Source of the DNA: Burkholderiales bacterium
GTDB lineage: Bacteria; Pseudomonadota; Gammaproteobacteria; Burkholderiales; SG8-39
Direction: 5' to 3'
Length of the DNA: 64,000 nt
Assembly (NCBI GenBank): GCA_050246035.1
Contig: JBFWWT010000006.1
Span: 6,802 to 70,801 of the forward strand
The number at the start of each line of letters is the position of its first letter. Position 1 is the first letter of the stretch. Below are positions 3,198-28,462 of the stretch, piece by piece. The notes under the pieces were generated by a model. The model saw only the letters and a list, made by a program, of their open reading frames with translations. It did not search any database and was not told the origin of the DNA. The translations under genes were made by a program, and so were the position numbers.

Positions 3198-3335
3198 GTA
3201 TTTGCCATAACGCCCCTTGTGCGCCCCCCGGAGCTGAGCGCAGGGGCCGAATGTGGCAGAAACCGCTACTCAGCGACCTGAATCCGGGCGCAATCGCCCG
3301 CATGGTGCGGAACGGACGAGAAGGAAATTCCTATC
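3198..3335 (+). repeat. IS91 right-end (oriIS-like) segment, copy A
   Basis: This 138-nt segment downstream of the tnpA stop recurs at 19547-19684. The first 22 nt are identical and the last 29 nt differ at one position. Confidence 0.6.
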
Positions 3336-3340
3336 TCTGA

Positions 3341-5260: not shown

Positions 5261-5541
5261 TCGTTTGACGAGGCAGCTCGCGCCTATCTCCTTACTCGTG
5301 GGGAGCTCACCCCATAGGCCTAGTGTCTATAAATCTACGTCATGGTTAGTACTCAATAAGTCAATTCCGTCCTGGCTGGTAGGGGCCGGATACTACGACG
5401 CTCGAAGGATCTGACAGTCGCGCTCGCTAGACAGTTTCATAGAGACGGCGTGGGTCAGGTCGGTTCACTCAGACAGTAAAGGACTCAGCAAGAACGAATG
5501 CGTATGCGACCCCAGTCACGTTCGAAAGCAGGAGGATATTA

Positions 5542-6894: not shown

Positions 6895-6925
6895 TCGTAG
6901 GCGATTAACAAGGGACGATCGCGAT

Positions 6926-7900: not shown

Positions 7901-8133
7901 CTTGGACGCCTCGGAATTTATTGAATGGATGAGAGTTCAAGGCACTACCACGATTTCGGGAGGTTGGTCTCGGAATTCGAGAGCGTTCGCTCGCCAACGT
8001 GACTTCCACTGCCTGGCCGTCGCAGCGGTGATCTCCGGTGTCGAGATCGACCTATTTCGGCGCCGCGCGTGAGCACCCGCCAATCTGTAGTCGCTGCCGC
8101 TTGTCGTTGAACACGCTACCGGACATCGCCTGA

Positions 8134-8607
8134 ATGACAGGAATAATCTATAGGAAATTCGTTCTGGCTCTCGGCTGGCTGGCGGCATTTCTCCTCGGAA
8201 TTGTCGCTCTCCTTGTGACAGCTGAGGTTGTTGCGCGCAATACCGGTATTGGAGACATTCCGTGGGTAGTTGAAGTATCGGAGTACAGTCTGTCGCTCGC
8301 GACCTTTCTGGTCGCTCCGCTGCTTCTGCACAAGAACGAGCATGTGCGGATAGACGTCTTCGTCCCGATGCTTCCGCGCACTGTAGCTCGCAACATTGAG
8401 CGACTGACAGATCTAATAGGCTTTCTGATAAGCGCCGTATTCTCGCTATATGGTCTCAAGCTGGTGTTTGATTCCATGAATGTTCATGCAATGGTGGTGA
8501 AGAATCTCGCGATACCGGAATGGTGGCAGTACGTGCCTGTCGTACTATGTTTCTTCCTACTAGGAATCGAATTCGCCCGTCGCGTTGTTGTAAAGCGTCC
8601 CGCCTAA
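8134..8607 (+). CDS. TRAP transporter small permease (DctQ family)
   Basis: 157 aa with 4 predicted TM segments, positioned between the DctP and DctM genes. Confidence 0.8.
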   Translation: MTGIIYRKFVLALGWLAAFLLGIVALLVTAEVVARNTGIGDIPWVVEVSEYSLSLATFLVAPLLLHKNEHVRIDVFVPMLPRTVARNIERLTDLIGFLISAVFSLYGLKLVFDSMNVHAMVVKNLAIPEWWQYVPVVLCFFLLGIEFARRVVVKRPA

Positions 8608-8636
8608 AACATGCTAAAACATGCTAAGGCGATAGG

Positions 8637-9956
8637 ATGACCTGGTGGTTAGCCGCAATCGGTCTATTCGGCGGGCTCTTGCTCCTCCTTGTGTGCGGTC
8701 TGCCGGCTGCGATCGGATTCTTCGGCATAAATCTCGTCGGCGCATGGGTCTACCTTGGCCACGGCGCGGGCATTATGCAACTCATGCGGGACGGCGTGAG
8801 TTCCATTACGAACTTCTCACTTACACCCATTCCGTTTTTTATTCTTATGGGCGAGGTGTTGTACCACACGGGCATCGGACATCGAGCGATTGACGCACTA
8901 GACCAGTTCATTTGGCGAGTACCTGGAAGGTTGTCAATTGTTGCGGTGGTCGCGGGAACGCTGTTTTCCACAATTTCCGGGTCTACGATCGCCGCGACCG
9001 CGCTACTCGGCAGCGCACTTCTGCCACAAATGCTGCGCCGTGGCTATCATCCCAGCATGGCGCTGGGCCCGATTCTGGCGGTCGGAAGCCTGGACATGCT
9101 CATTCCTCCATCGGCACTGGCCGTGCTGCTTGGCAGCTTGTCCAAGATACCAGTTGCGGATTTGTTGATCGCCGGAATCCTGCCGGGAGCATTGCTTTCA
9201 GTCACGTTCATCGCCTACATCATACTAAGGGTGTTGCATAACAGAGCCCTAGCGCCATCGTTTGGGCATGAGACACCACTGTCTCGATGGAAGCGCTGGA
9301 GAGCGCTGCTCCAGCATGTGGCGCCTCTTGTGTTGATCTTTGCGTTGGTTGTTGCGGCGATGGTAGCTGGATGGGCGACACCTACGGAAGCGGCGGCAAT
9401 CGGTGCCGTATCAACTGTGTTAGCTGCATGGATGTACGGTGCACTTAGGTGGTCGGCGCTGGCGGAGGCGCTGTTGGGTACCGCAAAGATCTCCGGCGTT
9501 ATGCTGTTCATTGTCGTTGGATCAACAACGTTCGCCCAAGTGCTGACTTTTTCTGGAGCCACTCAAGGCGTACTAGAGGTGGTCCAAAATGCCCAGCTTT
9601 CGACGCCTCTCCTTATTGCAGCAATGATTCTCACCTTATTGGTGCTTGGCTGTTTCTTAGATCAAGTGAGCATGATGCTCATGTGCCTTCCATTCTTTAT
9701 GCCGTTAGTAACCAATCTGGGCGTCGACCAAGTATGGTTCGGCATTCTCTTCCTGATCGGCATGCAACTAGGACTCCTGACTCCTCCCTTTGGGATCCTG
9801 TTGTTTGTGCTAAAGAGCGTTGCGCCAAAGGAGATTACTATGCGTCAGATATATCAGGCGGTTACTCCGTACATCATCCTTTGCCTGCTAGTACTTGTGT
9901 TTGTCTTCTTTTTTCCGCCAATCGCCACTTGGCTGCCCAGAGTCCTTTTGGGATAG
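8637..9956 (+). CDS. TRAP transporter large permease (DctM family)
   Basis: 439-aa polytopic protein with DctM-like sequence throughout. Confidence 0.9.
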   Translation: MTWWLAAIGLFGGLLLLLVCGLPAAIGFFGINLVGAWVYLGHGAGIMQLMRDGVSSITNFSLTPIPFFILMGEVLYHTGIGHRAIDALDQFIWRVPGRLSIVAVVAGTLFSTISGSTIAATALLGSALLPQMLRRGYHPSMALGPILAVGSLDMLIPPSALAVLLGSLSKIPVADLLIAGILPGALLSVTFIAYIILRVLHNRALAPSFGHETPLSRWKRWRALLQHVAPLVLIFALVVAAMVAGWATPTEAAAIGAVSTVLAAWMYGALRWSALAEALLGTAKISGVMLFIVVGSTTFAQVLTFSGATQGVLEVVQNAQLSTPLLIAAMILTLLVLGCFLDQVSMMLMCLPFFMPLVTNLGVDQVWFGILFLIGMQLGLLTPPFGILLFVLKSVAPKEITMRQIYQAVTPYIILCLLVLVFVFFFPPIATWLPRVLLG

Positions 9957-10266
9957 CTGTCCGCCGTGGCTCTTAGCGCACCAGATCGCATGATAGGCGC
10001 CCGGGGATGAAAGCGATGTGCGCGGACTCGGTGGAGGCCCAGGCATTAGACGCTGGGCCCCTCCGATTCGGAAGGCTCAAGAAAGGTCCTAGGATCGGGG
10101 TGGCAGCGGGAGGTGGCCCTGTGAATCCATGAACACTTCTACGTTAACAAGAAATGATCGCGTCGACTCGCAGTTCATTGCGTCCTCAACCGCTAGCAAG
10201 TGCCTGAGTGTGAACCGAGCACATCCTTTGTATATCACCCGAAATCCTTAAGAGGGAGAAGCGGGA

Positions 10267-11190
10267 CTAGGCGCTCGAAGTCAATAGAGTCTCGTAACGA
10301 GACCGTAGCGCTACGCATGCGGAGGCAACATAGTCGGTGAAGCGCTCTGTGTAGACCGATGGTGGACGGTGCTTCGCGTAAAGTGCACTGACATCGAATT
10401 CTATTGATGGAAGGAGTGGTCGAAGGGAGACAGCATTGATGTCTGCCTTTGACGCCGTGAACTCGTCGATCACCGCGATACCCGCCCCATGCGTAACAAA
10501 CCAGAGTGCGAGATGGCAAGTCATCACGCTGATCGCAGGATTCAGAGCTACTCTCGCTTGCTCGCATCTCTTCCGTAGGGCAGCGGACAACGGATTCACG
10601 TTCTCCATTAAGGATATAAACGGATATCTCGATAGTTCTCTTACCCCGAGGGACCTCTTCTTGGGCTTCTTCTCGCGAGGGAATGCAGCGATCATACGGC
10701 CGTTATGTAAGCTCCGCCGGTGGATCGCCGGATGATCTAGCGGAGCGTCGGCAAAAGCTATGTCGACCTTACTCGTCAGCAGCGCACTAAATACTTCCTG
10801 CCAATGGTGCGTTTCCAGAGTGCAAGTAATACCAGGATATTTGGACCGAAACCGCTCGATAGCGGTAGGTAGAAGCTCTTGCGCGAGAACTGGCGTTGCG
10901 GAAATGCGGAGATGACCCTTGTCTGCTGCTTTTAAATTCTGGGCAAGAGTACGAACTGCTGCGAGGGCTTGCGAGACACTTTCTACTTCCCTATAGAGAG
11001 CTGTGGCTTCCGGCGTAGGGTACAGACGCCCTTTGATACGGTGGAAAAGCCTGAAGCCAAGTTGGGACTCGGCATGTTGAAGTGTTCGAGTCACGGCGGG
11101 CTGCGAGATGTGAATGAGGTCCGCGGCGCCAGTTACGGAGCCGCTTCGCATGATCGCTTCAAAGACTTCGATGTGTCTCAGCCTCATCAC
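10267..11190 (-). CDS. LysR-family transcriptional regulator
   Basis: N-terminal HTH (MRLRHIEVFEAIMRSGSVTGAADLIHISQPAVTRTLQHAE) and a LysR substrate-binding domain. It is divergent from the reductase/pca genes. Confidence 0.9.
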   Translation of the reverse strand: MMRLRHIEVFEAIMRSGSVTGAADLIHISQPAVTRTLQHAESQLGFRLFHRIKGRLYPTPEATALYREVESVSQALAAVRTLAQNLKAADKGHLRISATPVLAQELLPTAIERFRSKYPGITCTLETHHWQEVFSALLTSKVDIAFADAPLDHPAIHRRSLHNGRMIAAFPREKKPKKRSLGVRELSRYPFISLMENVNPLSAALRKRCEQARVALNPAISVMTCHLALWFVTHGAGIAVIDEFTASKADINAVSLRPLLPSIEFDVSALYAKHRPPSVYTERFTDYVASACVALRSRYETLLTSSA

Positions 11191-11259
11191 AATTTCTCGA
11201 TCGCTACTCTGCAGTGAAGCTTAACATGCCCATGTCCTTGTGTTATGGGAACCCATAGA

Positions 11260-11287
11260 TTATCGATTTGATTCAACGGTTCGATAA
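11260..11287. promoter_or_regulatory. Inverted repeat TTATCGA-N14-TCGATAA in the LysR/reductase divergent intergenic region
   Basis: Perfect 7-bp arms at 11260-11266 and 11281-11287. This is a candidate regulator binding site. Confidence 0.3.
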
Positions 11288-11306
11288 CGTCTAACCTCGT
11301 TTGTGT

Positions 11307-12272
11307 ATGTCGAACGAGTCAACATATCGCGCGCTGATTCAGGTCCGCGTGTCTCGTATAGATAATGTTGCACGCGATGTGAAGGCGTTCGAACTCATGC
11401 CGCTCCATGCGGAGACACTACCGCCTTTCACTCCTGGAGCACATTTAACAGTCTTTCTCCCCCAAGGATTTGCTCGTAAGTATTCGTTATGCGGCGATCC
11501 ACTGCAGCAGAAGCATTACACAATTGCGGTTTTGCGGCAGACAGGATTCGGATCGACTTACATGCACGATGTGTTGGAGATCGGCGATACGCTCGAGATC
11601 TCCCATCCACGAAATCACTTCCCTCTGGCTCAAGATGGGACCAACTATCTTCTCATAGCAGGCGGTATTGGAGTCACGCCGCTCCTGTCAATGGCAAAGG
11701 AGCTCGCCAGTCGAGGCGCGCCATTTTCTTTCCTGTACTGTGCGAGGACACGAGAGCGATCTGCGTACATTGATCAGCTGGAAGCACTTTGCACAAAAGG
11801 GCAACTCGCTCTCCATTTCGACGGAGGAGACCCAAAACGGCAGTTCGACATACGGTCTTTAGTCCAAAGTGCCGGCCGGGATACGCATGTTTATTGCTGC
11901 GGTCCCACCAGCCTCATGAAAGCCGTAAGAGACTGTACTAGGGAGTGGTCGCCGCGCACCGTCCATTTCGAAGACTTCTCTTCCGGCAATTCCAATGGCC
12001 AATTCGAAGACGATGGCTTCGAAATCGTCCTTCGAAAGCGTGGCATCAAGCTTGTGGTACCGCCAGGAAAATCGATAGTCCGTGTCCTGCTAGAGCACGG
12101 CGTTCAAGTAGACACGTCGTGTGAGGCGGGAACATGTGGAACATGCCGTACTCGCTATTTAAGCGGGAATCCTATTCACAACGATTTTGTGCTCACTGAA
12201 CAAGAACAATCGCAGTTTGTAATGATTTGCTGCGCACGGGCCACGGATACACCGCTGGTACTTGATCTATAG
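11307..12272 (+). CDS. Phthalate-dioxygenase-reductase-type oxidoreductase (FMN/NAD-binding plus C-terminal plant-type 2Fe-2S)
   Basis: RKYSL flavin motif, LLIAGGIGVTPLLSM NAD fold, and CEAGTCGTCRTRY...MICC cluster motif. The ATG at 11307 is preferred over the TTG at 11301. Confidence 0.85.
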   Translation: MSNESTYRALIQVRVSRIDNVARDVKAFELMPLHAETLPPFTPGAHLTVFLPQGFARKYSLCGDPLQQKHYTIAVLRQTGFGSTYMHDVLEIGDTLEISHPRNHFPLAQDGTNYLLIAGGIGVTPLLSMAKELASRGAPFSFLYCARTRERSAYIDQLEALCTKGQLALHFDGGDPKRQFDIRSLVQSAGRDTHVYCCGPTSLMKAVRDCTREWSPRTVHFEDFSSGNSNGQFEDDGFEIVLRKRGIKLVVPPGKSIVRVLLEHGVQVDTSCEAGTCGTCRTRYLSGNPIHNDFVLTEQEQSQFVMICCARATDTPLVLDL

Positions 12273-12588
12273 GACGTGAGGCCTGTGGGGGTAGGCCGGC
12301 GAGTAACACTAGATGAATCGATATGGACTTACACAAGGACGCAGACGCGATGCCTAATTCTTGCCCTCATTCGTGAGCGACACCGAGGCTAAGAATAACT
12401 GCGCATCGGCGACCCATAAACAGGATTCGCTCGGAAGCGGGCTCCAAAGCTGAATGCGCAATGCGTTGAGCGCGTCTTCGGTCTTACAAAAATGCGCTAT
12501 CGCCGTAAGGGGAAGGAATCTCTCGCGATAGCCTCGGCAGGTTCTCGTAACTGAAGAAGCAAACATACACTGATATGAGGAGATTCAG

Positions 12589-13296
12589 ATGGCTGAGACC
12601 GTGATTCCGCATCCTTGCGTTTTCGCAGACAAGAAGCGGCTTGAGCTGATCAAAGGCTACCGAGTGCACGAACAGCGCACTCCGTCAAAACCACTTCTGC
12701 TCTTAACACCCTCCCAGACAATCGGTCCGTTCTTCAATTTGAGTTTGATTCGCGACGTGGATGACGATATCGCCCGCAAGGAGCCAGGCGGTGCGCGCGC
12801 GCAGGGAACGCCGATTGTGGTTACCGGGCGCGTCGTCGATGAGCAAGGCAAGCCGGTGCGCAAGGCTTTGATCGAGGTCTGGCAGGCCAACAAGTGGGGC
12901 AAGTACGAGCACCCCGACGACATTACCGACGCGCCGCTTGATCCGAACTTCAAGGGCTGGGGGCGCATGCTGACGGACTCGGAGGGGCGCTACCGCTTTC
13001 GCTCGATCAAGCCCGGCCCGTACCCTAATCCCGGCTACGACAACTGGATGAGACCCCCTCACATCCACTTTTCGATTTTTGCGGCTGGAGTGATGCAGCG
13101 CCTAATCACTCAACTCTATTTCCCGGACGAACCGTTGAACGATATCGATCCGATACTGAATGGTGTCGAGGACCTGAATGCACGCAGTGCGCTCATCGCA
13201 CGCCAACTCCCAGAGGAACCGGACGGCGCACTCGGGTTTCAGTTTGACATCGTGTTGCGCGGCAAGGCCGAGACTGCTTTCTTTGTAGACCATTGA
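12589..13296 (+). CDS. Protocatechuate 3,4-dioxygenase beta-subunit-like intradiol dioxygenase (no alpha subunit adjacent)
   Basis: PcaH-like throughout: EVWQANKWGKYEH, LDPNFKGWGR, KPGPYPNPG, PPHIHFSIFA. The Tyr/Tyr/His/His iron ligand positions appear retained. GAGGAG SD precedes the start. Confidence 0.85.
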   Translation: MAETVIPHPCVFADKKRLELIKGYRVHEQRTPSKPLLLLTPSQTIGPFFNLSLIRDVDDDIARKEPGGARAQGTPIVVTGRVVDEQGKPVRKALIEVWQANKWGKYEHPDDITDAPLDPNFKGWGRMLTDSEGRYRFRSIKPGPYPNPGYDNWMRPPHIHFSIFAAGVMQRLITQLYFPDEPLNDIDPILNGVEDLNARSALIARQLPEEPDGALGFQFDIVLRGKAETAFFVDH

Positions 13297-14639
13297 CCTC
13301 TTGCGTCGTGACTGAAGGTACGGTTGCCAGGATCTTTTCAGAGCGTGCGACGCTTGACACTTATTTGCGTGTGGAAGCTGCCTTGGCGCAGGCGGAGGCC
13401 GACCTTGAAATATTGCCGCAAGCGGCAGCTCGCGAGATCGCGCAAAAGGCAACCATGGACCTGCTCGACCTCACAGCTCTACGCGAACAGTCTGAACGAG
13501 TTGGCTACCCGATTGCACCCTTGGTGCGGCAGCTCACTACGTTATGCGGTGAGCACGGCCGCTACGTACACTGGGGCGCGACGACGCAGGATATCGTTAA
13601 TAGCGCGTTTGCCTCGCAGGTTAACGAAAGCCTCTCAGTATTCGCGTCCGACCTGGCATCGGCGCTGGAGCATCTTGCGGCGCTTGCACGGGAGTATCGC
13701 AAGACAGTGATGGCGGCGCGCACGTTCGGCGGGCATGCATTACCGATCACTTTCGGCTTCAAGGTGGCGGTATGGCTTTCAGGGTTGCTGCGCCACGCCG
13801 AGCGGCTCGAAACGCTGCTCCGCAGGCCGATGGATGGTGAATTTTCCGGTGTCGCTGGCACTCTCGCTTCGCTTGGTACGAAAGGCCAGCAAGTGCGGCG
13901 GCGTCTCATGCAATTGCTTGGACTGTCCGAGCCGATCGTCACTTGGGCACCCATGCGCGACGCCGTGTTTGAGCGCGTCGCATTCCTCGCTGGCTTGACC
14001 GCCACGCTCGCCAAGATTGCGGGTGACGTATCGGAGCTTTCCAGCACGGAAATCGGCGAACTGGAGGAGCCTCTATCAGGAGGCAGGGACACGAGCAGCG
14101 CCTTGCCGTTTAAATCGAACCCAATCTACTGCGCGCAGGTAATGACAAGCGCTTCACTCGTCGCTCAGCACCTCGCGTGCGTGCTCGAAGCGACGCGCCA
14201 GCACCAAGAGAGAAGCGGCGAAGGCTTGCTCGAATTTGTAGCGGCGCCGCAGGCTTTCGTGCAGGCGGAACGTTGCCTGACCTGCTTCCGTCTTCTGATC
14301 GACGGCCTCCGGGTGTATCCCGAGCGCATGTTTGCCAATCTAGGCATGACCCGAGGGGTATTGTTGGCTGAGCGCTACATGATGGCGCTCGCTCCGCACC
14401 TTGGGCGGCTTCCCGCTCATGACCTGGTGCACGAGGCTTGCCGGCGAGCAGTGGTTCAACACGACGATCTACGCACTGTGCTGGCCAACATGCCAGAGAC
14501 AAGGAAGCACCTTAACCCCGATCAACTGGCGGCACTCTCCGATCCCAAGACCTATCTTGGCACTGCCCTCGAAACGGTCGACGAGGTACTCGCCGCAACC
14601 CGGCGCTTCCTGGACGCGCGAGGAAACGAAATAAGATGA
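13293..14639 (+). CDS. 3-carboxy-cis,cis-muconate cycloisomerase-like (fumarate-lyase superfamily, PcaB-like)
   Basis: Lyase signature TSSALPFKSNP in a 448-aa product. The start overlaps the preceding stop; the exact start (TTG 13293 or GTG 13308) is uncertain. Confidence 0.85.
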   Translation: MTSCVVTEGTVARIFSERATLDTYLRVEAALAQAEADLEILPQAAAREIAQKATMDLLDLTALREQSERVGYPIAPLVRQLTTLCGEHGRYVHWGATTQDIVNSAFASQVNESLSVFASDLASALEHLAALAREYRKTVMAARTFGGHALPITFGFKVAVWLSGLLRHAERLETLLRRPMDGEFSGVAGTLASLGTKGQQVRRRLMQLLGLSEPIVTWAPMRDAVFERVAFLAGLTATLAKIAGDVSELSSTEIGELEEPLSGGRDTSSALPFKSNPIYCAQVMTSASLVAQHLACVLEATRQHQERSGEGLLEFVAAPQAFVQAERCLTCFRLLIDGLRVYPERMFANLGMTRGVLLAERYMMALAPHLGRLPAHDLVHEACRRAVVQHDDLRTVLANMPETRKHLNPDQLAALSDPKTYLGTALETVDEVLAATRRFLDARGNEIR

Positions 14640-15520
14640 ACATGCATATACCAGAGTGTCACGGTCCAGTTCCACAGCCATCGCCCCCGAGGCGAACGCT
14701 TCCTAAGGGGTCGTGGGACACGCACTTCCATGTACTCGGCCCGCAAGCGCGCTTCCCGTATTCGCGAGCGCGCAAATACACGCCACCGGACGCTCCACTG
14801 GAAGCTTGCTTGAGCCTGCATGGAACGCTTGGTATCGACCGCGGACTTGTGGTGCATGCCAACACGCACGGCTTTGACAACTCGGTCGATCTCGACGCAG
14901 TGGCGCGCTCGAATGGCAGGTACCTCGCAGTGGTGAGGCTCGACGCTTCCGCCACGCGTGACAGCTGCAGGAATTTGCACGCTGCGGGGGCACGAGGAGT
15001 GCGTTTTGCCTTCAACCCGCAGCATGGGGGTACGCTCGATCTAAATGTGTTTGAGCACGTACTCCGATGCATTGAGGGGCTCGACTGGTTCATTGATCTG
15101 CATTTCGATGGTGCGATGCTGCCGGATCTGCGGCGATGGATAGAAACTATCCCGGCACCAGTGGTAATCGACCATTTGGGCCGCATTGATCCCGGCCATG
15201 GCCTGGACCAGGAACCGTTCCGCGCACTGGCTGCCATCGCTCAACGCGGTAACACCTGGATCAAGATCACCGGTGCCGACCGAATTGTCCGAGGGGGCTA
15301 TCCGTACGCGGACGTGAAACCGTTTGTGCGTCGACTCCTGGAGGTAGCGGCCGATCGCCTCCTCTGGGGTAGCGACTGGCCGCACACCGGGTACTTCAAC
15401 TCGGCGGCGGTGCCGGACGACGGCAGGCTGTTGGACGCGCTCGCGGATTTCGTTGAGAGCGAGGCATTGCTTCACTCCATCCTCGTTGCCAATCCGTTGA
15501 GATTAATCCGGGGTGCCTAA
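14636..15520 (+). CDS. Amidohydrolase_2 family lactone hydrolase (LigI / 4-sulfomuconolactone-hydrolase-like)
   Basis: WDTHFHVLGP, VVIDHLGR and LLWGSDWPHTGY metal and catalytic motifs. ATGA start/stop overlap with the cycloisomerase gene. Confidence 0.8.
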   Translation: MNMHIPECHGPVPQPSPPRRTLPKGSWDTHFHVLGPQARFPYSRARKYTPPDAPLEACLSLHGTLGIDRGLVVHANTHGFDNSVDLDAVARSNGRYLAVVRLDASATRDSCRNLHAAGARGVRFAFNPQHGGTLDLNVFEHVLRCIEGLDWFIDLHFDGAMLPDLRRWIETIPAPVVIDHLGRIDPGHGLDQEPFRALAAIAQRGNTWIKITGADRIVRGGYPYADVKPFVRRLLEVAADRLLWGSDWPHTGYFNSAAVPDDGRLLDALADFVESEALLHSILVANPLRLIRGA

Positions 15521-15684
15521 TTCGCCTACAGTGGACTCCGCCGACTCAATGGACGGGAGCGATGCCCGAAATAAATGTATGACCACCTTTTGACAAGAGC
15601 TAAATCTATTGTGATCGAAGGGGCTCCAGACTGCCAGCGAACTGGCCGCAGTGGAACGATGCTTATTCCAGCTCGAGAGGAGCC

Positions 15685-16743
15685 ATGAAGCCGTTCATCT
15701 ATACCGGCTTCGCGTCCCGCGTCGTGTTTGGTGCCGGCTGCATTGAGCAACTCCCTGACGAGGTCGAGCGCCTGGGCGTCAAACGTGCCCTGATCCTTTC
15801 CACTTCCGAGCAGGCGAACAGTGCGCGAGAGGTAATGAAGGCGCTGGGCGCCCGTGCCGTGGGTGTCTACGACAAGGCCATGATGCACGTGCCCATCGAA
15901 ACGGCCGAGGAAGCGCGACTAGTAGCACGCGAGCTTGAGGCAGACTGCTACGTCACGGTCGGTGGCGGTTCGACTACGGGGTTAGGGAAGGCGATCGCCT
16001 TGACGTCGGGTCTGCCGATCCTTGCCGTACCGACCACCTACGCCGGCTCCGAGATGACGCCGATCTATGGCCTGACCCAAGGCGGAATGAAGAAGACGGG
16101 GCGCGACGCGCGCGTGCTGCCAAAGACGGTGATTTACGATCCGACGCTCACGATAGCGCTACCCCCGACCGTGTCAGCGGTGAGCGGCATGAACGCAATC
16201 GCACACTGCGTCGAGGCGCTCTATGCCCATGACGGGAATCCGATTGTGTCGATCATGGCCGAAGAGGGGATCCGGGCCCTTGCCGCAGCCCTTCCGGTTG
16301 TGGTCGAGAATCCCTCTGACATCCAGGCGCGAAGCAATGCGCTCTACGGGGCATGGCTTGGTGGCATATCGCTCGGTGGCGCCGGAATGGCGTTGCACCA
16401 CAAGCTATGCCACATACTCGGCGGCAGCTACAATCTGCCGCACGCCGACACTCACTCGATCGTGCTCCCGCACGCGGCGCACTACAACGATACGGCGACG
16501 GACGCAATGGTACGGATCGCCCGTGCGCTCGGCGCCAAGGAAGCGCCTAGGGGATTGTGGGATCTCGCATCGAACCTTGGCATCCCCATGGCCCTGCGGG
16601 ACCTCGCTTTCAAGGAAACCGACCTTGAACGCGCGGCAGAGATGGCCACAGAGAGTCCTTATCCCAACCCGAGGCCGGTCGAATATGCCGGCGTGCTCGC
16701 ACTGCTGCGCGACGCGTACGACGGCCGGCCGCCCGGGACCTGA
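15685..16743 (+). CDS. Maleylacetate reductase (iron-containing alcohol dehydrogenase family)
   Basis: FIYTGFASRVVFGAG, VGGGSTTGLGKAIAL and ILAVPTTYAGSEMTPIYG are typical of maleylacetate reductases. Confidence 0.85.
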   Translation: MKPFIYTGFASRVVFGAGCIEQLPDEVERLGVKRALILSTSEQANSAREVMKALGARAVGVYDKAMMHVPIETAEEARLVARELEADCYVTVGGGSTTGLGKAIALTSGLPILAVPTTYAGSEMTPIYGLTQGGMKKTGRDARVLPKTVIYDPTLTIALPPTVSAVSGMNAIAHCVEALYAHDGNPIVSIMAEEGIRALAAALPVVVENPSDIQARSNALYGAWLGGISLGGAGMALHHKLCHILGGSYNLPHADTHSIVLPHAAHYNDTATDAMVRIARALGAKEAPRGLWDLASNLGIPMALRDLAFKETDLERAAEMATESPYPNPRPVEYAGVLALLRDAYDGRPPGT

Positions 16744-16991
16744 CCGCCACGCGCGAAGAGGTCTTGGTTCGGGCTACCGCATCGATCTCTTTCTGTACAT
16801 GTACTTGCGTCAATCGTTGGAACGATGCCCTTTAAGGACCAGCTTCCCTTCATCGCGGGGTGGTACTAGCTGCGCTCTGCGAGGCGTTTCAGGTCGACGA
16901 TGCGCTCGATTAACTGGCCTATGCCTCAACGCGATAATCAGCCTACTCGAGACGCAGTTTGTTCACTGGCGAGGCAGGTAATCGACTGACC

Positions 16992-17657
16992 ATGATTGAT
17001 AAGCGAGCAACTTCGGTCGAAGAAGCGATCTCGGTAGTCAAAGACGGCGCGGTGGTTCTTGTTGGTGGTTTTGGGGACATCGGTGTGCCGCTGAACCTTG
17101 TGTCGGCGCTTGCTGAGCGCGGGGCGCGAAATCTCACAGTGGTGTCGAACAACGCTGGAACGGGCGAAAAGGGTTTGGCGCTGCTCTTTAAGCACGGCCT
17201 TGTCCGAAAGCTGATCGCCTCGTTTCCCGCGCAAGCTGGTGCCGATCACTTCTTTGCTGCCCATGAGCGAGGCGAGGTAACGGTAGAGCTCGTACCGCAA
17301 GGTACTCTCGCCGAGAGGCTGCGCGCAGGTGGGGCGGGACTCGCCGGAATCTTTACGCCGACGGGCTACGGGACAGAGCTAACCGAAGGGAAAGAAACCC
17401 GGCAAATCAATGCACGCGGCTATGTATACGAATCCGCGCTAAGGGGCGATATTGCGCTGGTACGCGCTCAGACCGCGGATCGCTTTGGCAACCTGCGATA
17501 TCGCCTCGCAAGCCGCAACTTCAACCCCCTGATGGCAATGGCAGCCAATCACACGATCGCGGAGGTGAGAAAGGTCGCCGAGCTTGGTGAAATTGATCCT
17601 GACGATATCCATACCCCAGGCGTCTATGTCGACCAGGTCGTAGAGTGCACCGCATGA
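16992..17657 (+). CDS. pcaI: 3-oxoadipate CoA-transferase subunit A
   Basis: CoA-transferase family I alpha sequence (VLVGGFGDIGVPLNLV, ELVPQGTLAERLRAGG). It is followed by the beta subunit with an ATGA overlap. Confidence 0.85.
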   Translation: MIDKRATSVEEAISVVKDGAVVLVGGFGDIGVPLNLVSALAERGARNLTVVSNNAGTGEKGLALLFKHGLVRKLIASFPAQAGADHFFAAHERGEVTVELVPQGTLAERLRAGGAGLAGIFTPTGYGTELTEGKETRQINARGYVYESALRGDIALVRAQTADRFGNLRYRLASRNFNPLMAMAANHTIAEVRKVAELGEIDPDDIHTPGVYVDQVVECTA

Positions 17658-18295
17658 GCAATGGATGGACAGACGATCAACTCGCGCGGCGCGTCGCCAA
17701 AGAGTTCCCCGACGGCTCTTACGTAAATCTCGGCATCGGATTGCCCACAAAGGTGGCCGATCACATTCCGAGTGGCCGAGAAGTTCTCATTCACAGTGAA
17801 AACGGGATCATCGGAATGGGTCCGGCCCCAAAACCCGGAAGTGAGGACCCGGACGTTGTAAATGCCGGAAAGAAGTCTGTGACGCTGGTTAGAGGTGCGG
17901 CGATTGTCCACCAAGCAGACTCGTTCTCCCTCATTCGTGGCGGGCGGCTTTTCGCGTCGGTACTTGGCGGGTTACAGGTTTCCCAGAACGGAGACCTTGC
18001 AAATTGGAAAGTGCCCAACAGCGGCGTGGGAGGGGTCGGTGGTGCGATGGATCTCGCGGCGGGAGCGCAGCGTGTCTTCGTCATGATGCGCCACCGCGAC
18101 AAGACCGGTGGCTCAAAGCTGGTCAAGCGATGCACCTTCTCGCTGACTGCGCCGAATTGCGTCACGACCGTATTTACGGATTTGGGCGTCTTTGATTGCA
18201 AGGACGGACGCTTCATCTGCCGAGAGCTTGCCTCAGATGTTTCCCGTGAGACAGCGATCGGCGCAACCGAGGGTCGCCTTGAGTTTCAGCTCTAG
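17654..18295 (+). CDS. pcaJ: 3-oxoadipate CoA-transferase subunit B
   Basis: Beta-subunit sequence with SENG catalytic Glu motif (LIHSENGIIGMGP). Confidence 0.85.
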   Translation: MSNGWTDDQLARRVAKEFPDGSYVNLGIGLPTKVADHIPSGREVLIHSENGIIGMGPAPKPGSEDPDVVNAGKKSVTLVRGAAIVHQADSFSLIRGGRLFASVLGGLQVSQNGDLANWKVPNSGVGGVGGAMDLAAGAQRVFVMMRHRDKTGGSKLVKRCTFSLTAPNCVTTVFTDLGVFDCKDGRFICRELASDVSRETAIGATEGRLEFQL

Positions 18296-18451
18296 CGGAA
18301 GTATGACTATCGCTACTCGGTGCTCACGGGCGTGTTCGGCCGTCTGCTTGCCGAAGGCTGGATCAGTGAGAAAGACCTTCGTGGGCTTGACACTGAGAAA
18401 CTCGAGCTCATTCGGCGCAGCGCTGGAACAGTGAAGGAACTCGATGCCTGA
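18296..18451 (+). pseudogene. Orphan C-terminal gene fragment (51 codons) directly after the pcaJ stop
   Basis: Protein-like translation RKYDYRYSVLTGVFGRLLAEGWISEKDLRGLDTEKLELIRRSAGTVKELDA with no start codon. I did not recognise the family. Confidence 0.3.
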
Positions 18452-18473
18452 CGCCGAAGCGAAGCCCGGGTAG

Positions 18474-18596
18474 CGCGCGGGCCCGCGCCGCTCCGGGCGC
18501 GACCGATGCGGGGGGCAGGGCGCCTCAACCAGCGGACGTCGCGAATCGCCGCGCCCGAGCATCCATGAGCCGGCGCCAGAGGGAAGGAATCAGTGC
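18474..18596. repeat. Copy B' of the alkB 3' end/downstream repeat
   Basis: Aligns with 3341-3553, apart from about 95 nt extra in the left copy. Confidence 0.55.
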
Positions 18597-19652
18597 GGGG
18601 AAGAAGAGCGCCAAGTAGCCCGCTGGCAGCACGGGCATCGATTCGATGTGTCTGAGGTCGTAGTACGGCACGTCCGCGTCCAGGTGATGATGGACGTGAC
18701 GCGTGATGTTCAGCGTGAACGCGTTCGTCATGAAGCCGTTGCTGTTCCAGGAAAGGCTGCCGCGCGGCGGAGCGGGCGCGTCCCGGCTCAAGCCGTAGTG
18801 CTGCGCGTAGTTCACGTACTCGGTCGTGAATATTCCAAACGCAGCCTGGGCAAGAAAGAGCGCCAAGCCCCATGGCCCGCCGATCATCGCGAACACGACG
18901 ATGACGAAGGCGGTGAGAAGCCACTGCTGAACGTATCGATTGAGGACGAGCCGCTGGCGCTTGGCGAGCTGGCGCCGGCGCTCGATCCGCCAGGCGCTGC
19001 GAAGCGTGAACTGGGCATTCTTCGTCACGGCGCCCCAGACGCTTTGGCCGAGGGGCGGGGTGGTGCCTTCGCTTGCTACGCCGACCTTCGCGTGGTGATG
19101 CAGGTGCTCGAACGGAAAGGGGCCGTAGGCGACGGTCGCCATGATCAGGCGGGCGAGGCCCCGATCAAAGGCCGACGGCCAATGCACCAGTTCGTGCGCG
19201 ACGCAGGTCGCGAACGCAGTGGCTATTGCGACCGACACCACGAGCCAGACAGCTGTCGGGCCGGTTGCCTCATAAGCGAGCGTATGCGCAGCCCAGGCCA
19301 GCGTGCCGAGCCACAGAAAGACGTAGAGGCGGGGCATCGTGCGCAACCACGCGGTGGCAAGGCGCGGTGCACTGCTGTCCAGCGGTTCCGTTCGGTCCGG
19401 GCCGATCGCAAGATCCAGCGCGGGTATGCCGACGAACGCAATGGCCGGCAGCAGCCAAGGGACGTCGGCGTAATACCCGACAAGCACGAGCAGAGGAAGC
19501 GCGGGAAACGCGCTGAACGCGAGAAGCTTGCCGTAATACCAGTGGCGTATTTGCCATAACGCCCCTTGCACAGCCCCCTCGACGCCGTGGGCATGACCGA
19601 TTGTGGCACCAATCCACCGCTCAGCAGCCCAGATCCGGCCGCTGACGAGCAT
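18525..19652 (-). CDS. alkB: Alkane 1-monooxygenase-like integral-membrane di-iron hydroxylase (AlkB / fatty-acid-desaturase family)
   Basis: His boxes HELVHW, EHLHHH and ITRHVHHH plus NYAQHYGL. The first ~35 codons of the ORF lie inside the IS91-end repeat, so the true N-terminus is uncertain. Confidence 0.75.
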   Translation of the reverse strand: MLVSGRIWAAERWIGATIGHAHGVEGAVQGALWQIRHWYYGKLLAFSAFPALPLLVLVGYYADVPWLLPAIAFVGIPALDLAIGPDRTEPLDSSAPRLATAWLRTMPRLYVFLWLGTLAWAAHTLAYEATGPTAVWLVVSVAIATAFATCVAHELVHWPSAFDRGLARLIMATVAYGPFPFEHLHHHAKVGVASEGTTPPLGQSVWGAVTKNAQFTLRSAWRIERRRQLAKRQRLVLNRYVQQWLLTAFVIVVFAMIGGPWGLALFLAQAAFGIFTTEYVNYAQHYGLSRDAPAPPRGSLSWNSNGFMTNAFTLNITRHVHHHLDADVPYYDLRHIESMPVLPAGYLALFFPALIPSLWRRLMDARARRFATSAG

Positions 19653-19684
19653 GACGCGGAACGGACGAAAAGGAAATTCCTATC
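19547..19684 (+). repeat. Solo IS91 right-end (oriIS-like) segment, copy B
   Basis: 138 nt in the same orientation as 3198-3335, ending in GGAAATTCCTATC. No transposase gene lies upstream of it. Confidence 0.6.
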
Positions 19685-19773
19685 CCTCGCTTCGCCCGAA
19701 TTCCGCAAGTTCGTCAACATCACGCTCTCCCGCACCAGCCGCTTCGGCGCGTTGCACGGGGCCTTCTGCTGTT

Positions 19774-20064
19774 TCATTCATGTAACGCCTCAATCGCCTT
19801 CGGGTTTGAAGCAACGATCTTGAGCAGCGCCCTGGCAGGCCCGGTGGGCTGCGTGCGGTGCTGCTCCCAGTTTTGCAACGTGCGCAGATTCACGCCGATC
19901 AATTTCGCGAACTGGCTCTGGCTGATCCGGGCCGCTTCGCGGATGGTGCGCACGTCCGGCTCGGGCAGTTCGGTCGTTCTTGCGCCACGCACACTTTTGC
20001 CTGCCATATGGCGCTTCATTTCACGCACGCCTTTGACCAGTTGGTCGAAATGCTGCTTATCCAT
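19774..20064 (-). CDS. higA: HigA-type antitoxin (XRE-family HTH)
   Basis: 96 aa with HTH segment IREAARISQSQFAKLIGVNLRTLQNWEQ. It overlaps the upstream toxin gene by 8 nt. Confidence 0.8.
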   Translation of the reverse strand: MDKQHFDQLVKGVREMKRHMAGKSVRGARTTELPEPDVRTIREAARISQSQFAKLIGVNLRTLQNWEQHRTQPTGPARALLKIVASNPKAIEALHE

Positions 20065-20377
20065 TTTCGATGTCCTTCATCAATTGTGCCAGCGTGTTGA
20101 TCTGCTTGGGTGTCAGGTCAGCTTGCGCACTCTTGACGTAAGCGTAAATCAGGTAGATGCGTTCCATCGGCACATGCCTGTAGTAGATCACCCTCGCACC
20201 ACCCCGCTTGCCGTGTCCTCGTACAGCCCAGCGCAGCTTGCGCAAACCGAAACCGCCTGCGATCACGTCGCCTGCGTCCGGCGTGGCAAGCAGGAAATTC
20301 TGCAGGCCGCGCAAATCTTCGTCGTTCCACTGCTCGGCACGAAAAGCGATGAACGGCGTGAGCTCGACAAAGACCAT
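20057..20377 (-). CDS. higB: HigB/RelE-family toxin
   Basis: 106 aa counted from the internal ATG at 20377. Contains GGARVIYY...IYLIYAYVKSAQADLTP. The toxin-first gene order is typical of higBA. Confidence 0.8.
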   Translation of the reverse strand: MVFVELTPFIAFRAEQWNDEDLRGLQNFLLATPDAGDVIAGGFGLRKLRWAVRGHGKRGGARVIYYRHVPMERIYLIYAYVKSAQADLTPKQINTLAQLMKDIENG

Positions 20378-20837: not shown

Positions 20838-21555
20838 CGCACAGGTACGCAACGGCGGGGGTTTCCAGCCGATTTTGCCAGTGCCGCAACCCAGTGATGA
20901 GCTCCCTGGCGCATCACGCCGTACAACCGCGCAATGCGGTTCGTCCCTCTGCCCGTTCCCCAACGGGCGTCGTTTGTCCTCGCGCGCACCCCGCGCACTC
21001 CCGAGCCTTGGGTATTGGTTCAACTCGATGGGTCGAGTTCCCACAGGAACCGCCATCGAAGCCAAGAGCGGGTGCAGCCGCGGCGAGCAGCAAAAGGAAG
21101 CACTGCACAAATCGGGAGTGGTGTCCCGGGTCCCTCGTAGATCTCGTTCTGCCTAGGCAGGCGAGACGGACAGAAACACTAACCGGACAGGCAGCACACA
21201 CCAGCAGCAGCAACGCAGCAAGCGGAAGGCAGCAAGACGCGACGGATCGGGTTGGAAAGGGAATCGATGGCAGCTAGCGCAAAGACGGCGAATCGACTGC
21301 AACTGGACTGCAGGCCATTTGCTCTCCGGTGCGTACCAGCGTGAGGCGCTGTGCCTAGCACGCCGGGCAAACGGAACGGTACGGCCGGGGCGCAAGGTGC
21401 GCCCGCCTCTGTTAAGCTCTTGGTTCCGCTACCCGAGGATGCGTTGGTTCCCGGCGAACTCGAACTCATCTGGGCCCACCTTGCGGGGCTCTTGCATCGG
21501 GTAATACCGCCAGAAGTCGATTTCGACCCTTCCTTTGATTCGGAGGCGAACCGCC

Positions 21556-23202
21556 ATGGCCGTAGCCCTGTATGCGCGAGTTTCGACGACTCGCCAAGCC
21601 GAGAACGATCTGTCGATCCCGGATCAACTGCGCCAGCTCCGGGAGCACTGCAAGACCCATAACCTGCCCGTTGCCTCGGAGTACGTGGAACCAGGCGCGT
21701 CCGCGAGCGATGATCGGCGCCCCGTGTTTCAGCAGATGATTGCGGATGCGACGCAGCCGCCTGCGCCGTTCGAGGCGATCCTGGTCCACAGCCGTTCGCG
21801 CTTCTTCCGGGACCTGTTCCAGTTCCTGCACTACGAGAGGGTGCTGAAGAAGGTCGGGGTCAAAATCGTCTCGATCACCCAGCAAACGAGCGATGACGCG
21901 GCCGGCGAAATGGCGAGCAAGCTCTTCAGCCTGTTCGATGAGTACCAGAGCAAGGAGAACGCGAAGCACACCCAGCGGGCGATGCAGGAGAACGCCCGCC
22001 AGGGGTACTGGAACGGCTCCGTGCCGCCCTTTGGCTTCCGGGCAGCAACGACCGAGATCGTCGGGAATCGGGGCCGACACAAGCGCCGGCTCGAGCTCGA
22101 TCCGGTGGAAGCGGAAACCGTGCGGGAGATCTACCGCCTGTACCTCGCCGGCCACGACGGCAACGTCATGGGCATGAAGGCGATCGCGACGCACCTGAAC
22201 CGCCAAGGCCTCACCATGCGCGGGCGCCCGTGGCGCATCCAGAAAGTGAATCGGCTGCTCGCCGACCCGCTCTACGCGGGCTGTTTTTACTTCAATCGGC
22301 GCGACTCCCGGACCCACAAGGAGCGGCCCCAGCAGGAGTGGATCGCGGTAGCGGTCCCGGCGATCATCGATGCCGGCGCCTTCGAGCGGGTGGCAAAGCG
22401 CCGCGCCATGAGCAACCCGAACGCGTTCCCGCCGCGGGCGATGGCCTCGCCCGCACCGCTCGTGGGCCTGCTCAAGTGCGGACACTGCGGGGCGGGGATG
22501 ACCCAGGCGTCTGGCAAATCGGGGCGCTACCGCTACTACAAGTGCACCACGCGCATGGCGCAGAACGTAGATGCCTGCACGGCGAAGAACCTGCCGCGCG
22601 AGCAGACCGATGGGCTGGTGCTGCACGCGTTATCCGAGCGGGTATTCACGCCCAAGCGCGTGTCCCTGATGCTCAACGAGCTGCTGCGGCACCAGCGCCA
22701 GGCGAAGACCGCCGAGGATGCCCGGCTCATCACGATGAAGACGGAACTCGACCGGGCGACGACGGGCCTGGATCGCCTCTATAAGGCCGTGGAGGAAGGC
22801 GCCCTGTCCATCGACGAGACACTGCGCACGCGCACGCAGAAGCTCAAAGCGCGTCGTAGCGAAGTGCTCACCGAGATGGCGAAGCTCAAGGACCGGCAGG
22901 CGCTCGCGGTGCGGCGGGTGAACGCGGACACCGTGAAAGCGTTCTGCGCGGCGCTGCAAGAGCGCTTCACCGACCCATCCTCGGGCCTGGGCAAAGCCTA
23001 CCTGCGCTTGCTGGTGGACGAAATCAAGCTCGACGGGAACGAACTGGTAGTTACGGGCAGCCACCGGCGCCTCGCGGACGCCTTCGGCTTCATGCAGAAA
23101 ACAAAGCTGGGAGAAGTGCCCAGCTTCGTGAATGACTGGCGCGCCCGGCGGGATTCGAACCCACGACCCTTGGCTTCGGAGGCCAATACTCTGATCCGCT
23201 GA
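21556..23202 (+). CDS. Large serine recombinase (resolvase catalytic domain, recombinase domain, zinc ribbon, coiled coil)
   Basis: MAVALYARVSTTRQ catalytic Ser motif, GYWNGSVPPFGF, and LLKCGHCGAGM...YYKC zinc ribbon. GGAGG lies 9 nt before the ATG at 21556. The last ~22 codons are antisense to the tRNA. Confidence 0.9.
   Translation: MAVALYARVSTTRQAENDLSIPDQLRQLREHCKTHNLPVASEYVEPGASASDDRRPVFQQMIADATQPPAPFEAILVHSRSRFFRDLFQFLHYERVLKKVGVKIVSITQQTSDDAAGEMASKLFSLFDEYQSKENAKHTQRAMQENARQGYWNGSVPPFGFRAATTEIVGNRGRHKRRLELDPVEAETVREIYRLYLAGHDGNVMGMKAIATHLNRQGLTMRGRPWRIQKVNRLLADPLYAGCFYFNRRDSRTHKERPQQEWIAVAVPAIIDAGAFERVAKRRAMSNPNAFPPRAMASPAPLVGLLKCGHCGAGMTQASGKSGRYRYYKCTTRMAQNVDACTAKNLPREQTDGLVLHALSERVFTPKRVSLMLNELLRHQRQAKTAEDARLITMKTELDRATTGLDRLYKAVEEGALSIDETLRTRTQKLKARRSEVLTEMAKLKDRQALAVRRVNADTVKAFCAALQERFTDPSSGLGKAYLRLLVDEIKLDGNELVVTGSHRRLADAFGFMQKTKLGEVPSFVNDWRARRDSNPRPLASEANTLIR
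23136..23154. repeat. attR-like direct repeat (within the tRNA-Arg 3' end)
   Basis: Identical to 1495-1513. Confidence 0.7.
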
Positions 23203-23213
23203 GCTACGGGCGC
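23137..23213 (-). tRNA. tRNA-Arg (anticodon CCG)
   Basis: The reverse complement is a 77-nt cloverleaf: acceptor GCGCCCG/CGGGCGC, anticodon stem TTGGC/GCCAA with loop CU-CCG-AA, T-loop GGTTCGAATCC, encoded CCA. Confidence 0.9.
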
Positions 23214-28448: not shown

Positions 28449-28462
28449 CGTTGCGAGGGCGC

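Follow-up and report, generated by a model that had tools for sequence, protein, structure and literature searches.

A candidate 4-sulfocatechol-type modified ortho-cleavage pathway on a tRNA-Arg island of a Burkholderiales bacterium

Introduction

To our knowledge, only a few sulfanilate-grown isolates are known to desulfonate aromatic sulfonates through 4-sulfocatechol. Here we analyze a 64,000-nucleotide stretch of DNA from a Burkholderiales bacterium (assembly GCA_050246035.1, contig JBFWWT010000006.1, positions 6,802 to 70,801 of the forward strand; hereafter the window), in which a block of catabolic genes encodes an intradiol dioxygenase, a cycloisomerase, a lactone hydrolase, a maleylacetate reductase and two CoA-transferase subunits. 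An earlier sequence-only reading had likened this block to the 4-sulfocatechol pathway of sulfanilate degraders. The published clusters bear that comparison out: with 4SLH standing for 4-sulfomuconolactone hydrolase and MAR for maleylacetate reductase, the genes run pcaH2-pcaG2-(tnp)-pcaB2-4SLH-MAR in Hydrogenophaga intermedia PBC and scaA (pcaB2)-scaB (4SLH)-scaC (MAR)-oxidoreductase-pcaH2-pcaG2 in Novosphingobium resinovorum SA1 (PMC5632844). The order on pSA3 agrees, with cycloisomerase, hydrolase and maleylacetate reductase following one another as they do in the window.

How does the locus in the window compare with these systems? Its block is a self-contained set of catabolic operons on a 21.6 kb island at a tRNA-Arg gene. 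We favor, as reasonably probable, a modified ortho pathway of the 4-sulfocatechol type, fed by an adjacent Rieske oxygenase, its reductase and a tripartite ATP-independent periplasmic (TRAP) transporter. The general scheme, in which hydrolysis of a lactone would eliminate the ring substituent and leave maleylacetate, we consider likely; sulfonate, which would be released as sulfite, is the likeliest such substituent and a tentative assignment.

Gene order and coupling

Six open reading frames on one strand fill positions 12589-18295, each where the sequence-only reading had placed it. That reading counted seven genes, but the seventh is a reductase at 11301-12272, upstream of this span. Strong family matches support the identities it had proposed for the intradiol dioxygenase, cycloisomerase, amidohydrolase, maleylacetate reductase and PcaI/PcaJ.

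12589-13296, + strand: PcaH(beta)-like single-subunit intradiol dioxygenase, 235 aa (Dioxygenase_C 3.7e-41; PcaH model 5.2e-70)
13293-14639, + strand: PcaB-like cycloisomerase of the fumarase/adenylosuccinate-lyase superfamily, 448 aa (Lyase_1 + ADSL_C; PcaB model 9.2e-110)
14636-15520, + strand: cog3618 lactone hydrolase, 294 aa (Amidohydro_2 1.8e-44)
15685-16743, + strand: maleylacetate reductase, 352 aa (Fe-ADH family; maleylacetate reductase structures)
16959/16992-17657, + strand: PcaI, 3-oxoadipate/3-oxoacid CoA-transferase subunit A (TIGR02429; probable start 16992)
17645/17654-18295, + strand: PcaJ, CoA-transferase subunit B (TIGR02428; probable start 17654)

The first three genes are coupled through stop/start overlaps at 13293 and 14636, as had been claimed. 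A TTG at 13293 overlaps the dioxygenase stop codon (13294-13296), with an alternative GTG start 12 nt further downstream, and the cycloisomerase stop and hydrolase ATG share the sequence ATGA (14636-14639), preceded 10 nt upstream by a GAGGAA ribosome-binding site. A GAGGAG ribosome-binding site precedes the dioxygenase ATG. The reading frames of PcaI and PcaJ overlap as well; their start positions follow the annotation of locus L001. Scans for promoters and terminators across 9900-18700 gave no signal exceeding shuffled expectation.

The lactone hydrolase

In the hydrolase the motifs HFH, VIDHLGR and GSDWPH are present as first noticed, and its sole NCBIfam match is NF042924, the equivalog model of 4-sulfomuconolactone hydrolase (355.8 bits, a score weighed below against the cutoff of that model). 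It is 50.5% identical to ScaB of the SA1 sulfanilate cluster and 38% identical to LigI, which is also its top solved structure (PDB 4D8L, 1e-52). In a neighbor-joining tree of 80 genome-derived homologs, the window protein belongs to a mainly Burkholderiales clade whose sister group holds ScaB, LigI forming a long outgroup; its nearest branch is a hydrolase from a Delftia plasmid described below.

In LigI numbering, the catalytic residues His31, His33, His180 and Asp248 and the carboxylate-binding Arg124 are conserved. The LigI residues A47/Q75/S77/N126/R130/Y156/N253 are replaced by R/H/N/A/Q/H/G in both the window enzyme and SA1 ScaB, and among the active-site positions compared these two differ only at LigI positions 78 and 154. 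The window enzyme carries both the catalytic set and the residues that distinguish ScaB from LigI, as expected of a 4-sulfomuconolactone hydrolase. A PcaB-like gene upstream and a maleylacetate reductase gene downstream complete the neighborhood expected of such an enzyme. A third clade, 45-47% identical to the window enzyme, ScaB and LigI alike, keeps the LigI-like residues S77/C78/N126/V154/N253, with H130, and its Roseomonas member adjoins genes for a class III extradiol dioxygenase and for 4-carboxy-4-hydroxy-2-oxoadipate (CHA) aldolase, the LigI-type context of protocatechuate 4,5-cleavage. The combination N77/A126/Q130/G253 thereby marks a superclade associated with maleylacetate reductase.

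Is the enzyme then of the LigI type, as it had been labeled? The LigI-like motifs and the cog3618 fold stand. A LigI-type lactonase of 2-pyrone-4,6-dicarboxylate (PDC) it is not, in view of the 38% identity, its place in the tree and the change of Arg130 to Gln. A 2012 study by Hobbs et al. is said to have identified Arg124 and Arg130 as the two carboxylate-binding arginines of LigI. Because the second of these is missing, PDC is an unlikely substrate; the neighbors, moreover, are those of an ortho pathway and not of 4,5-cleavage. Clustering with true PDC lactonases, which the sequence-only reading had named as the outcome that would undo its proposal, was not seen, and the protein falls in the ScaB superclade instead. 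We rejected the reading of the gene as a LigI/PDC hydrolase on identity, tree position and the loss of Arg130.

Predicted ring cleavage and lactonization

The dioxygenase scores 235.6 bits against TIGR02422 (PcaH), under the cutoff of 296.4. SA1 PcaH2 scores 335; with that protein the dioxygenase shares 40% identity, with PcaG2 37.5%. The Fe ligands Tyr408, Tyr447, His460 and His462 are kept, as are the second-sphere residues Tyr324, Arg457 and Gln477, and also Ile491. Position 449 is Asn, where Pseudomonas putida has Trp and the beta subunits of SA1, Bradyrhizobium and Pseudaminobacter have Val. Measured against heteromeric PcaHG, the Fe(III)-site residues are present, and both a beta-subunit score and a separate pcaG gene are lacking: tblastn with PcaG and PcaH across the whole 64 kb returned the dioxygenase itself as the only match. 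The sequence-only reading had spoken of a missing alpha subunit. There is indeed no PcaG in the window, but this is not a local loss. Single-gene dioxygenases form a monophyletic clade, sister to the beta subunits, so the absence of an alpha subunit is a character of the clade. A local deletion was rejected on that ground and because the AT-rich spacer upstream of the dioxygenase (12273-12588, 316 nt) is too short for an alpha-subunit gene. As its place in the tree indicates, the dioxygenase is a distinct beta-like form and no truncated PcaHG.

The cycloisomerase has the fumarase/adenylosuccinate-lyase fold, by its Lyase_1 and ADSL_C domains and by structure matches. It stays below the cutoffs of both PcaB models, with 367.5 bits on NF006554 (cutoff 595) and 247.6 on TIGR02426 (cutoff 355.75); these cutoffs do not discriminate, since SA1 ScaA, of characterized type, also falls below them (377 and 319, respectively). 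The top solved structure is the uncharacterized 3C8T (362 bits), followed by the PcaB-like trans-aconitate decarboxylase Tad1 (284) and PcaB itself (1Q5N, 263; 1RE5 also matched). Identity to SA1 ScaA is 34%; related modules have cycloisomerases at 46.5-60% identity. The enzyme is no ortholog of PcaB2 and was probably recruited independently of it.

Predicted steps from lactone to 3-oxoadipate

The top structures for the product of 15685-16743 are all maleylacetate reductases (3JZD, 451 bits; 3HL0 and 3W5S, about 350 bits), and it is 54% identical to the maleylacetate reductase of the SA1 cluster; by family placement it is a maleylacetate reductase. Its gene lies between the hydrolase and pcaIJ. 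Both CoA-transferase subunits pass their models, PcaI with 326.3 bits on TIGR02429 (cutoff 128.5) and PcaJ with 289.4 on TIGR02428 (cutoff 243.55); as these are subfamily-level models, 3-oxoadipate is the presumptive acyl substrate.

The classical route from protocatechuate would need PcaC and PcaD, neither of which the sequence-only reading could recognize, and our searches agree. A carboxymuconolactone decarboxylase (CMD)-family, PcaC-like protein gave no tblastn match in the 64 kb window. No PcaD-like gene was seen in the island, by an indirect test that used no true PcaD reference; the alpha/beta-hydrolase signals of the window, MetX (28451-29584, beside MetW) and a weak match at about 52.3 kb, both lie outside the island. 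The classical beta-ketoadipate branch, which requires PcaC together with PcaD, is accordingly incomplete within the window.

Could a nonorthologous protocatechuate branch take its place? In such a branch the PcaB-like enzyme would both lactonize and decarboxylate 3-carboxymuconate, much like the related trans-aconitate decarboxylase, the amidohydrolase would replace PcaD as enol-lactone hydrolase, PcaIJ would follow, and the maleylacetate reductase would be accessory. The dioxygenase retains Tyr324 and all catalytic residues of PcaH, a decarboxylase of the PcaB-like kind (Tad1) is the second-best structure for the cycloisomerase, PcaIJ are present, and some relatives of the module have no maleylacetate reductase nearby. 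We nonetheless hold this branch to be very improbable: the hydrolase is tied to maleylacetate reductase in both clades and in many architectures, its signature is that of known maleylacetate-forming enzymes, and the window places a dedicated maleylacetate reductase in front of pcaIJ.

Upstream genes and the proposed pathway

The catabolic block extends upstream beyond the span first noted.

5542-6894, + strand: alpha-only Rieske oxygenase of the phthalate-dioxygenase family (Pfam Rieske)
6926-9956, + strand: TRAP transporter, DctP 6926-7900, DctQ 8134-8607, DctM 8637-9956 (Pfam DctQ; DctP and DctM by the annotation of L001)
10267-11190, - strand: LysR-type regulator, divergent from the reductase and ring-cleavage genes (Pfam HTH_1 + LysR_substrate)
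11301-12272, + strand: PDR/VanB-type reductase with an FNR-like domain and plant-type 2Fe-2S (Pfam NAD_binding_1 + Fer2)

The Rieske oxygenase, whose top solved structures are phthalate 4,5-dioxygenases (7FHR, 7FJL), is the presumed source of the substituted catechol. The reductase has its likely start at ATG 11307, aligns end to end with the PDR/VanB reductase of the Delftia cluster at 41% identity, and probably serves the Rieske oxygenase. For DctP the top solved structure is 4MNC (340 bits); the closest TRAP system among the fetched loci is that of L093 (DctP 44%, DctM 58% identity).

These genes, together with the six downstream, suggest a complete route, each catalytic step of which is predicted from sequence. 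The TRAP system would import an anionic para-substituted aromatic compound, from which the phthalate-family Rieske oxygenase and the PDR-type reductase would yield a 4-substituted catechol. As no diol dehydrogenase is encoded, this step would either add a single hydroxyl group to a phenol or be a dioxygenation after which a leaving group departs spontaneously. The beta-type dioxygenase, presumably homo-oligomeric, would cleave the catechol to a 3-substituted cis,cis-muconate, and the PcaB-like enzyme would convert this to a 4-substituted muconolactone. On opening of the lactone by the cog3618 hydrolase, the carbon bearing both the hydroxyl group and the substituent would become a ketone, expelling the substituent and leaving maleylacetate. 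Maleylacetate reductase would then form 3-oxoadipate, and PcaIJ 3-oxoadipyl-CoA, for which a thiolase would have to come from elsewhere. The idea of a 4-substituted catechol whose substituent is eliminated at the lactone step, already put forward from the sequence, is strengthened by the hydrolase tree, the active-site signature and the adjacency of maleylacetate reductase. Sulfonate is the likeliest substituent, and with it the route would be a nonorthologous variant of the 4-sulfocatechol pathway.

Related loci

About 90 related loci were compared. Genes for maleylacetate reductase, an intradiol dioxygenase and a PcaB-like enzyme accompany the hydrolase clade across them, and in more than 30 loci of both clades maleylacetate reductase adjoins the hydrolase, even where dioxygenase or cycloisomerase is absent. 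The module is widespread and not unique to the window. Full-text literature searches found no described homologous cluster and no account of this variant.

While the module is constant, the upstream feeder enzymes vary. All of them would fit conversion of para-substituted aromatic anions into 4-substituted catechols, and the documented examples have sulfonate as their shared substituent. A plasmid of Delftia acidovorans (NZ_CP065696.1, L007) carries a divergent Rieske oxygenase with a CoA-transferase, a thiolase and DUF35, followed by dioxygenase, cycloisomerase, hydrolase, maleylacetate reductase and PDR reductase, and then by an IS1071 transposase. Copies of this cluster, with module proteins 94-100% identical, occur in Verticiella alkaliphila and two metagenome-assembled genomes (MAGs) (L021, L022, L083). 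The MAGs are labeled Chloroflexota and Phycisphaerae, probably through binning artifacts or recent transfer. The Delftia locus and L096 share ibuprofen (Ipf)-like side-chain removal through CoA (CoA ligase or transferase, thiolase, DUF35), and the Delftia-type cluster is a candidate for degradation of sulfophenyl carboxylates. A Bradyrhizobium betae plasmid combines maleylacetate reductase, hydrolase and TRAP genes with PcaHG, a PobA-like hydroxylase and PcaB. In three alphaproteobacterial MAGs (L068, L079, L081), orthologs of the window Rieske oxygenase (50-56% identity) lie directly upstream of dioxygenase, cycloisomerase and hydrolase, adjoining modules with a hydrolase at 454 bits on NF042924.

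The most informative relative is L093, where positions 685-11541 hold TRAP genes, a Rieske oxygenase, a glutamine-synthetase-like protein, maleylacetate reductase, dioxygenase (73.5% identical to the window), cycloisomerase (60%), hydrolase (67%) and a PF03601/YeiH-family protein that is 51% identical to YeiH of pSA3. PF03601 is the 'putative sulfate exporter' family. On pSA3, YeiH adjoins a TauE sulfite exporter and scaA. The pairing of a Rieske oxygenase with a glutamine-synthetase-like protein in L093 is the layout of sadA/sadB, encoding 4-aminobenzenesulfonate dioxygenase (PMC5632844). The latter protein is 65% identical to a 'gamma-glutamylanilide synthase', its other matches bearing generic names; an arylamine oxygenase is supported, and a link to SadB of Hydrogenophaga is not proven. 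As a whole, L093 resembles a full (sulfanilate-like) pathway for arylamine sulfonates that uses a module of the window type. Its Rieske gene is apparently split or miscalled, with the N-terminal domain at about 3615-4100, and the locus adjoins type IV secretion genes. On another, short contig (L091, 723-4396), a hydrolase 77% identical to that of the window, the closest with context beyond the window's own cluster, stands beside TctC, LysR and a sulfatase (PF00884 + SGSH_C).

In a broader view, the dioxygenase, PcaB-like enzyme and cog3618 hydrolase would be a general, widespread 'eliminative ortho-cleavage' cassette with interchangeable feeders, a dioxygenase that is a homo-oligomeric protocatechuate 3,4-dioxygenase having an iron site in each subunit, and chemistry so far undescribed in operons that lack the cycloisomerase. 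It would remove heteroatom substituents from para-substituted aromatic acids, among them the sulfonate group of sulfanilate, of surfactant-derived sulfophenyl carboxylates and of aryl sulfonates that occur in nature, and perhaps further oxyanion groups. Taken as a whole, this view is unlikely.

Weighing the proposed pathway

Several observations count against the 4-sulfocatechol-type pathway proposed for the window. With 40% and 34% identity, respectively, to the type II enzymes, the dioxygenase and cycloisomerase cannot be assumed to share their substrate, and literature searches returned no biochemical data for any member of the clade. The hydrolase is below the 500-bit cutoff of NF042924. 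On that model scores step down gradually from the SA1 enzyme (607) and that of Pseudaminobacter salicylatoxidans (594) through L068 (454), L071 (425) and Delftia (368) to the window (356), a gradation that for its part speaks for kinship with the 4-sulfomuconolactone hydrolases. A tblastn search with TauE found none in the window, and neither a sulfite/sulfate exporter nor a sulfite dehydrogenase occurs there. Finally, the hydrolase family has 1294 matches at E<=1e-20 in ordinary environmental metagenomes, the top 120 at >=64% identity, an abundance that suggests a natural rather than a rare xenobiotic substrate.

The score and the missing exporter agree with the caution, already voiced from the sequence, that the leaving group cannot be read from it. 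Might the scheme be the same and the group another, the substrate being a 4-halo-, 4-nitro-, 4-amino-, 4-alkoxy/aryloxy- or other heteroatom-substituted catechol? The subthreshold hydrolase clade, the lack of a sulfite-handling gene in the window and the spread of the family through non-industrial metagenomes all speak for it. Phthalate-family Rieske oxygenases, too, include enzymes for chlorobenzoate and phenoxybenzoate, and one homolog (32% identity) carries the annotation phenoxybenzoate dioxygenase. Yet the sole characterized relatives of the hydrolase are desulfonating enzymes whose active-site signature it matches except at LigI positions 78 and 154, and L093 pairs the module with a YeiH-family transporter like that of the SA1 sulfanilate cluster. 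Halocatechols, moreover, normally pass through enolase-type cycloisomerases and alpha/beta-fold dienelactone hydrolases. A leaving group other than sulfonate is therefore rather unlikely in our judgment.

A different kind of objection comes from loci without a cycloisomerase. About 22 species-level genomes have an operon of LigXa-type Rieske oxygenase, TctC, dioxygenase and hydrolase, often followed by a short-chain dehydrogenase/reductase (SDR) (L013, L014, L016, L018, L020/L089, L023-L031, L037, L038, L042, L046, L050, L051, L061-L063, L097). Their dioxygenases are 70-78% and their hydrolases 63-71% identical to those of the window, and within 10 kb neither a cycloisomerase nor a maleylacetate reductase was found. 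L071 and L080 have PcaHG, hydrolase and maleylacetate reductase, again with no cycloisomerase. When the neighbors of the cycloisomerase-free operons were clustered, no hidden cycloisomerase emerged; an SDR was frequent downstream and an EamA/methyltransferase pair lay upstream, and the other clusters were mostly antisense shadow frames. In such operons the lactone may arise otherwise than proposed, the cycloisomerase may act in trans, or the chemistry may be another.

These operons are the ground for supposing that dioxygenase and hydrolase form a functional pair, the ring-cleavage product of a catechol- or pyrogallol-type substrate lactonizing by itself (to a pyrone, for example) and the cycloisomerase being optional or having some other lyase-type role. 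About half of the loci, however, lie in one wider neighborhood and represent few independent events, and the same operon frame recurs with a cycloisomerase, sometimes also a maleylacetate reductase, inserted (L002, L009, L010, L096). The loss of the second carboxylate-binding arginine disfavors PDC as the pyrone, and the window cycloisomerase is coupled in translation to the gene on either side of it. Self-lactonization thus seems improbable here, and we retain the 4-sulfocatechol-type pathway with its cycloisomerase step.

Genomic context

The suspicion of foreign composition is borne out. A low-GC stretch (52-63%) spans about 4-22 kb, against about 70% elsewhere in the window, and the block lies between attachment (att) repeats at a tRNA-Arg gene. 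The pair of 19-nt repeats bounds a 21.6 kb island integrated at that gene.

1495-1513, no strand: left att repeat (CTGGCGCGCCCGGCGGGAT), an exact 19-nt direct repeat of 23136-23154 (repeat family D9)
1858-3129, + strand: IS91-family transposase within the island (Pfam Zn_Tnp_IS91 + Y2_Tnp)
21535-23202, + strand: large serine recombinase of the island (Pfam Resolvase + Recombinase + Zn_ribbon_recom)
23137-23213, - strand: tRNA-Arg(CCG) (ARAGORN), whose 3' end is the right att repeat, 23136-23154

The recombinase frame runs into the tRNA-Arg gene, which lies on the other strand. About 2.4 kb that separate the IS91 transposase from the Rieske gene (3130-5541) contain no convincing open reading frame and could be decayed genes or regulatory DNA. 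The island also encodes a 375-aa membrane protein of the fatty-acid-desaturase/alkane-hydroxylase family (18525-19652, - strand) and, by the annotation of L001, an HTH_3/RelE-like toxin-antitoxin pair (19774-20064 and 20057-20377, both - strand), none with an obvious link to the pathway. Four collinear direct-repeat segments of 76-88% identity (3198-3553 versus 18477-19698) copy both flanks of the FA_desaturase/AlkB-like gene and leave its interior uncopied. The position of the catabolic block between these degenerate repeats suggests an insertion or duplication beside that gene.

The same sequence is present in a Burkholderiales MAG (GCA_050178625.1). A search of plasmids for near-identical DNA gave as sole match 446 nt of the maleylacetate reductase gene, at 73.9%, in Aureimonas. 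The host flank (23813-64000) is ordinary Burkholderiales housekeeping DNA in which no aromatic catabolic genes were seen; it includes probable gshB, metX/metW, probable gatCAB, mreB/mreC, proC, an isocitrate-lyase-like gene and a YggT-family gene, of which metX, metW and YggT were checked against Pfam and the remainder read from translations.

Discussion

What would the proposed pathway mean if it is true? Aromatic desulfonation would be far commoner in Burkholderiales than the few sulfanilate-grown isolates imply, and it would be highly mobile, carried by a tRNA island in the window, by an IS1071 composite transposon in Delftia and Verticiella, and beside type IV secretion genes in L093. It would also supply candidate genes for the lower pathway of the intermediates of linear alkylbenzenesulfonate (LAS) surfactants, 4-sulfophenol and sulfophenyl carboxylates, as well as a homo-oligomeric protocatechuate 3,4-dioxygenase relative that a single gene encodes, of use in enzymology and pathway engineering. 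These are concrete candidates for aromatic desulfonation, which a specialist would find plausible rather than astonishing.

Comparison with known systems

Against the protocatechuate branch of the beta-ketoadipate pathway, the window has a dioxygenase and a cycloisomerase of homologous fold, along with true PcaIJ-family subunits. It differs in having no PcaG, PcaC or PcaF, in its amidohydrolase and maleylacetate reductase, and in a dioxygenase and cycloisomerase that stay under the PcaH and PcaB equivalog cutoffs. With LigI, the hydrolase shares the cog3618 amidohydrolase fold, the four catalytic residues and Arg124; Arg130, Tyr156, Ser77, Asn126 and Asn253 have become Gln, His, Asn, Ala and Gly, and its partners belong to the ortho-cleavage and maleylacetate route, not to protocatechuate 4,5-cleavage.

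The Delftia cluster is built of the same parts, namely a dioxygenase (59% identical to the window), cycloisomerase (46.5%), hydrolase (66%), maleylacetate reductase (55%), Rieske oxygenase and PDR reductase. Its Rieske oxygenase is only 31% identical, however; it adds CoA-transferase, thiolase and DUF35, lacks TRAP genes and pcaIJ, and sits in a composite transposon where the window has a tRNA island.

With the 4-sulfocatechol pathway of H. intermedia S1/PBC, Agrobacterium radiobacter S2 and N. resinovorum SA1, the window shares gene order, a setting in mobile DNA and, if our proposal holds, the reaction logic. Its hydrolase and maleylacetate reductase are 50.5% and 54% identical to those of SA1, with a common active-site signature in the hydrolases, and this core is, to judge by those likenesses, common by descent. 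The window differs in having one beta-like dioxygenase gene in place of the PcaH2/PcaG2 pair, a cycloisomerase of another lineage (34% to ScaA; closest structure 3C8T), a hydrolase under the equivalog cutoff, a phthalate-type Rieske oxygenase in place of SadABD, no TauE/YeiH exporter, and pcaIJ included in the block. As far as gene content tells, its novelty relative to this pathway lies in the single dioxygenase gene, the cycloisomerase of separate lineage, and the different feeder together with pcaIJ.

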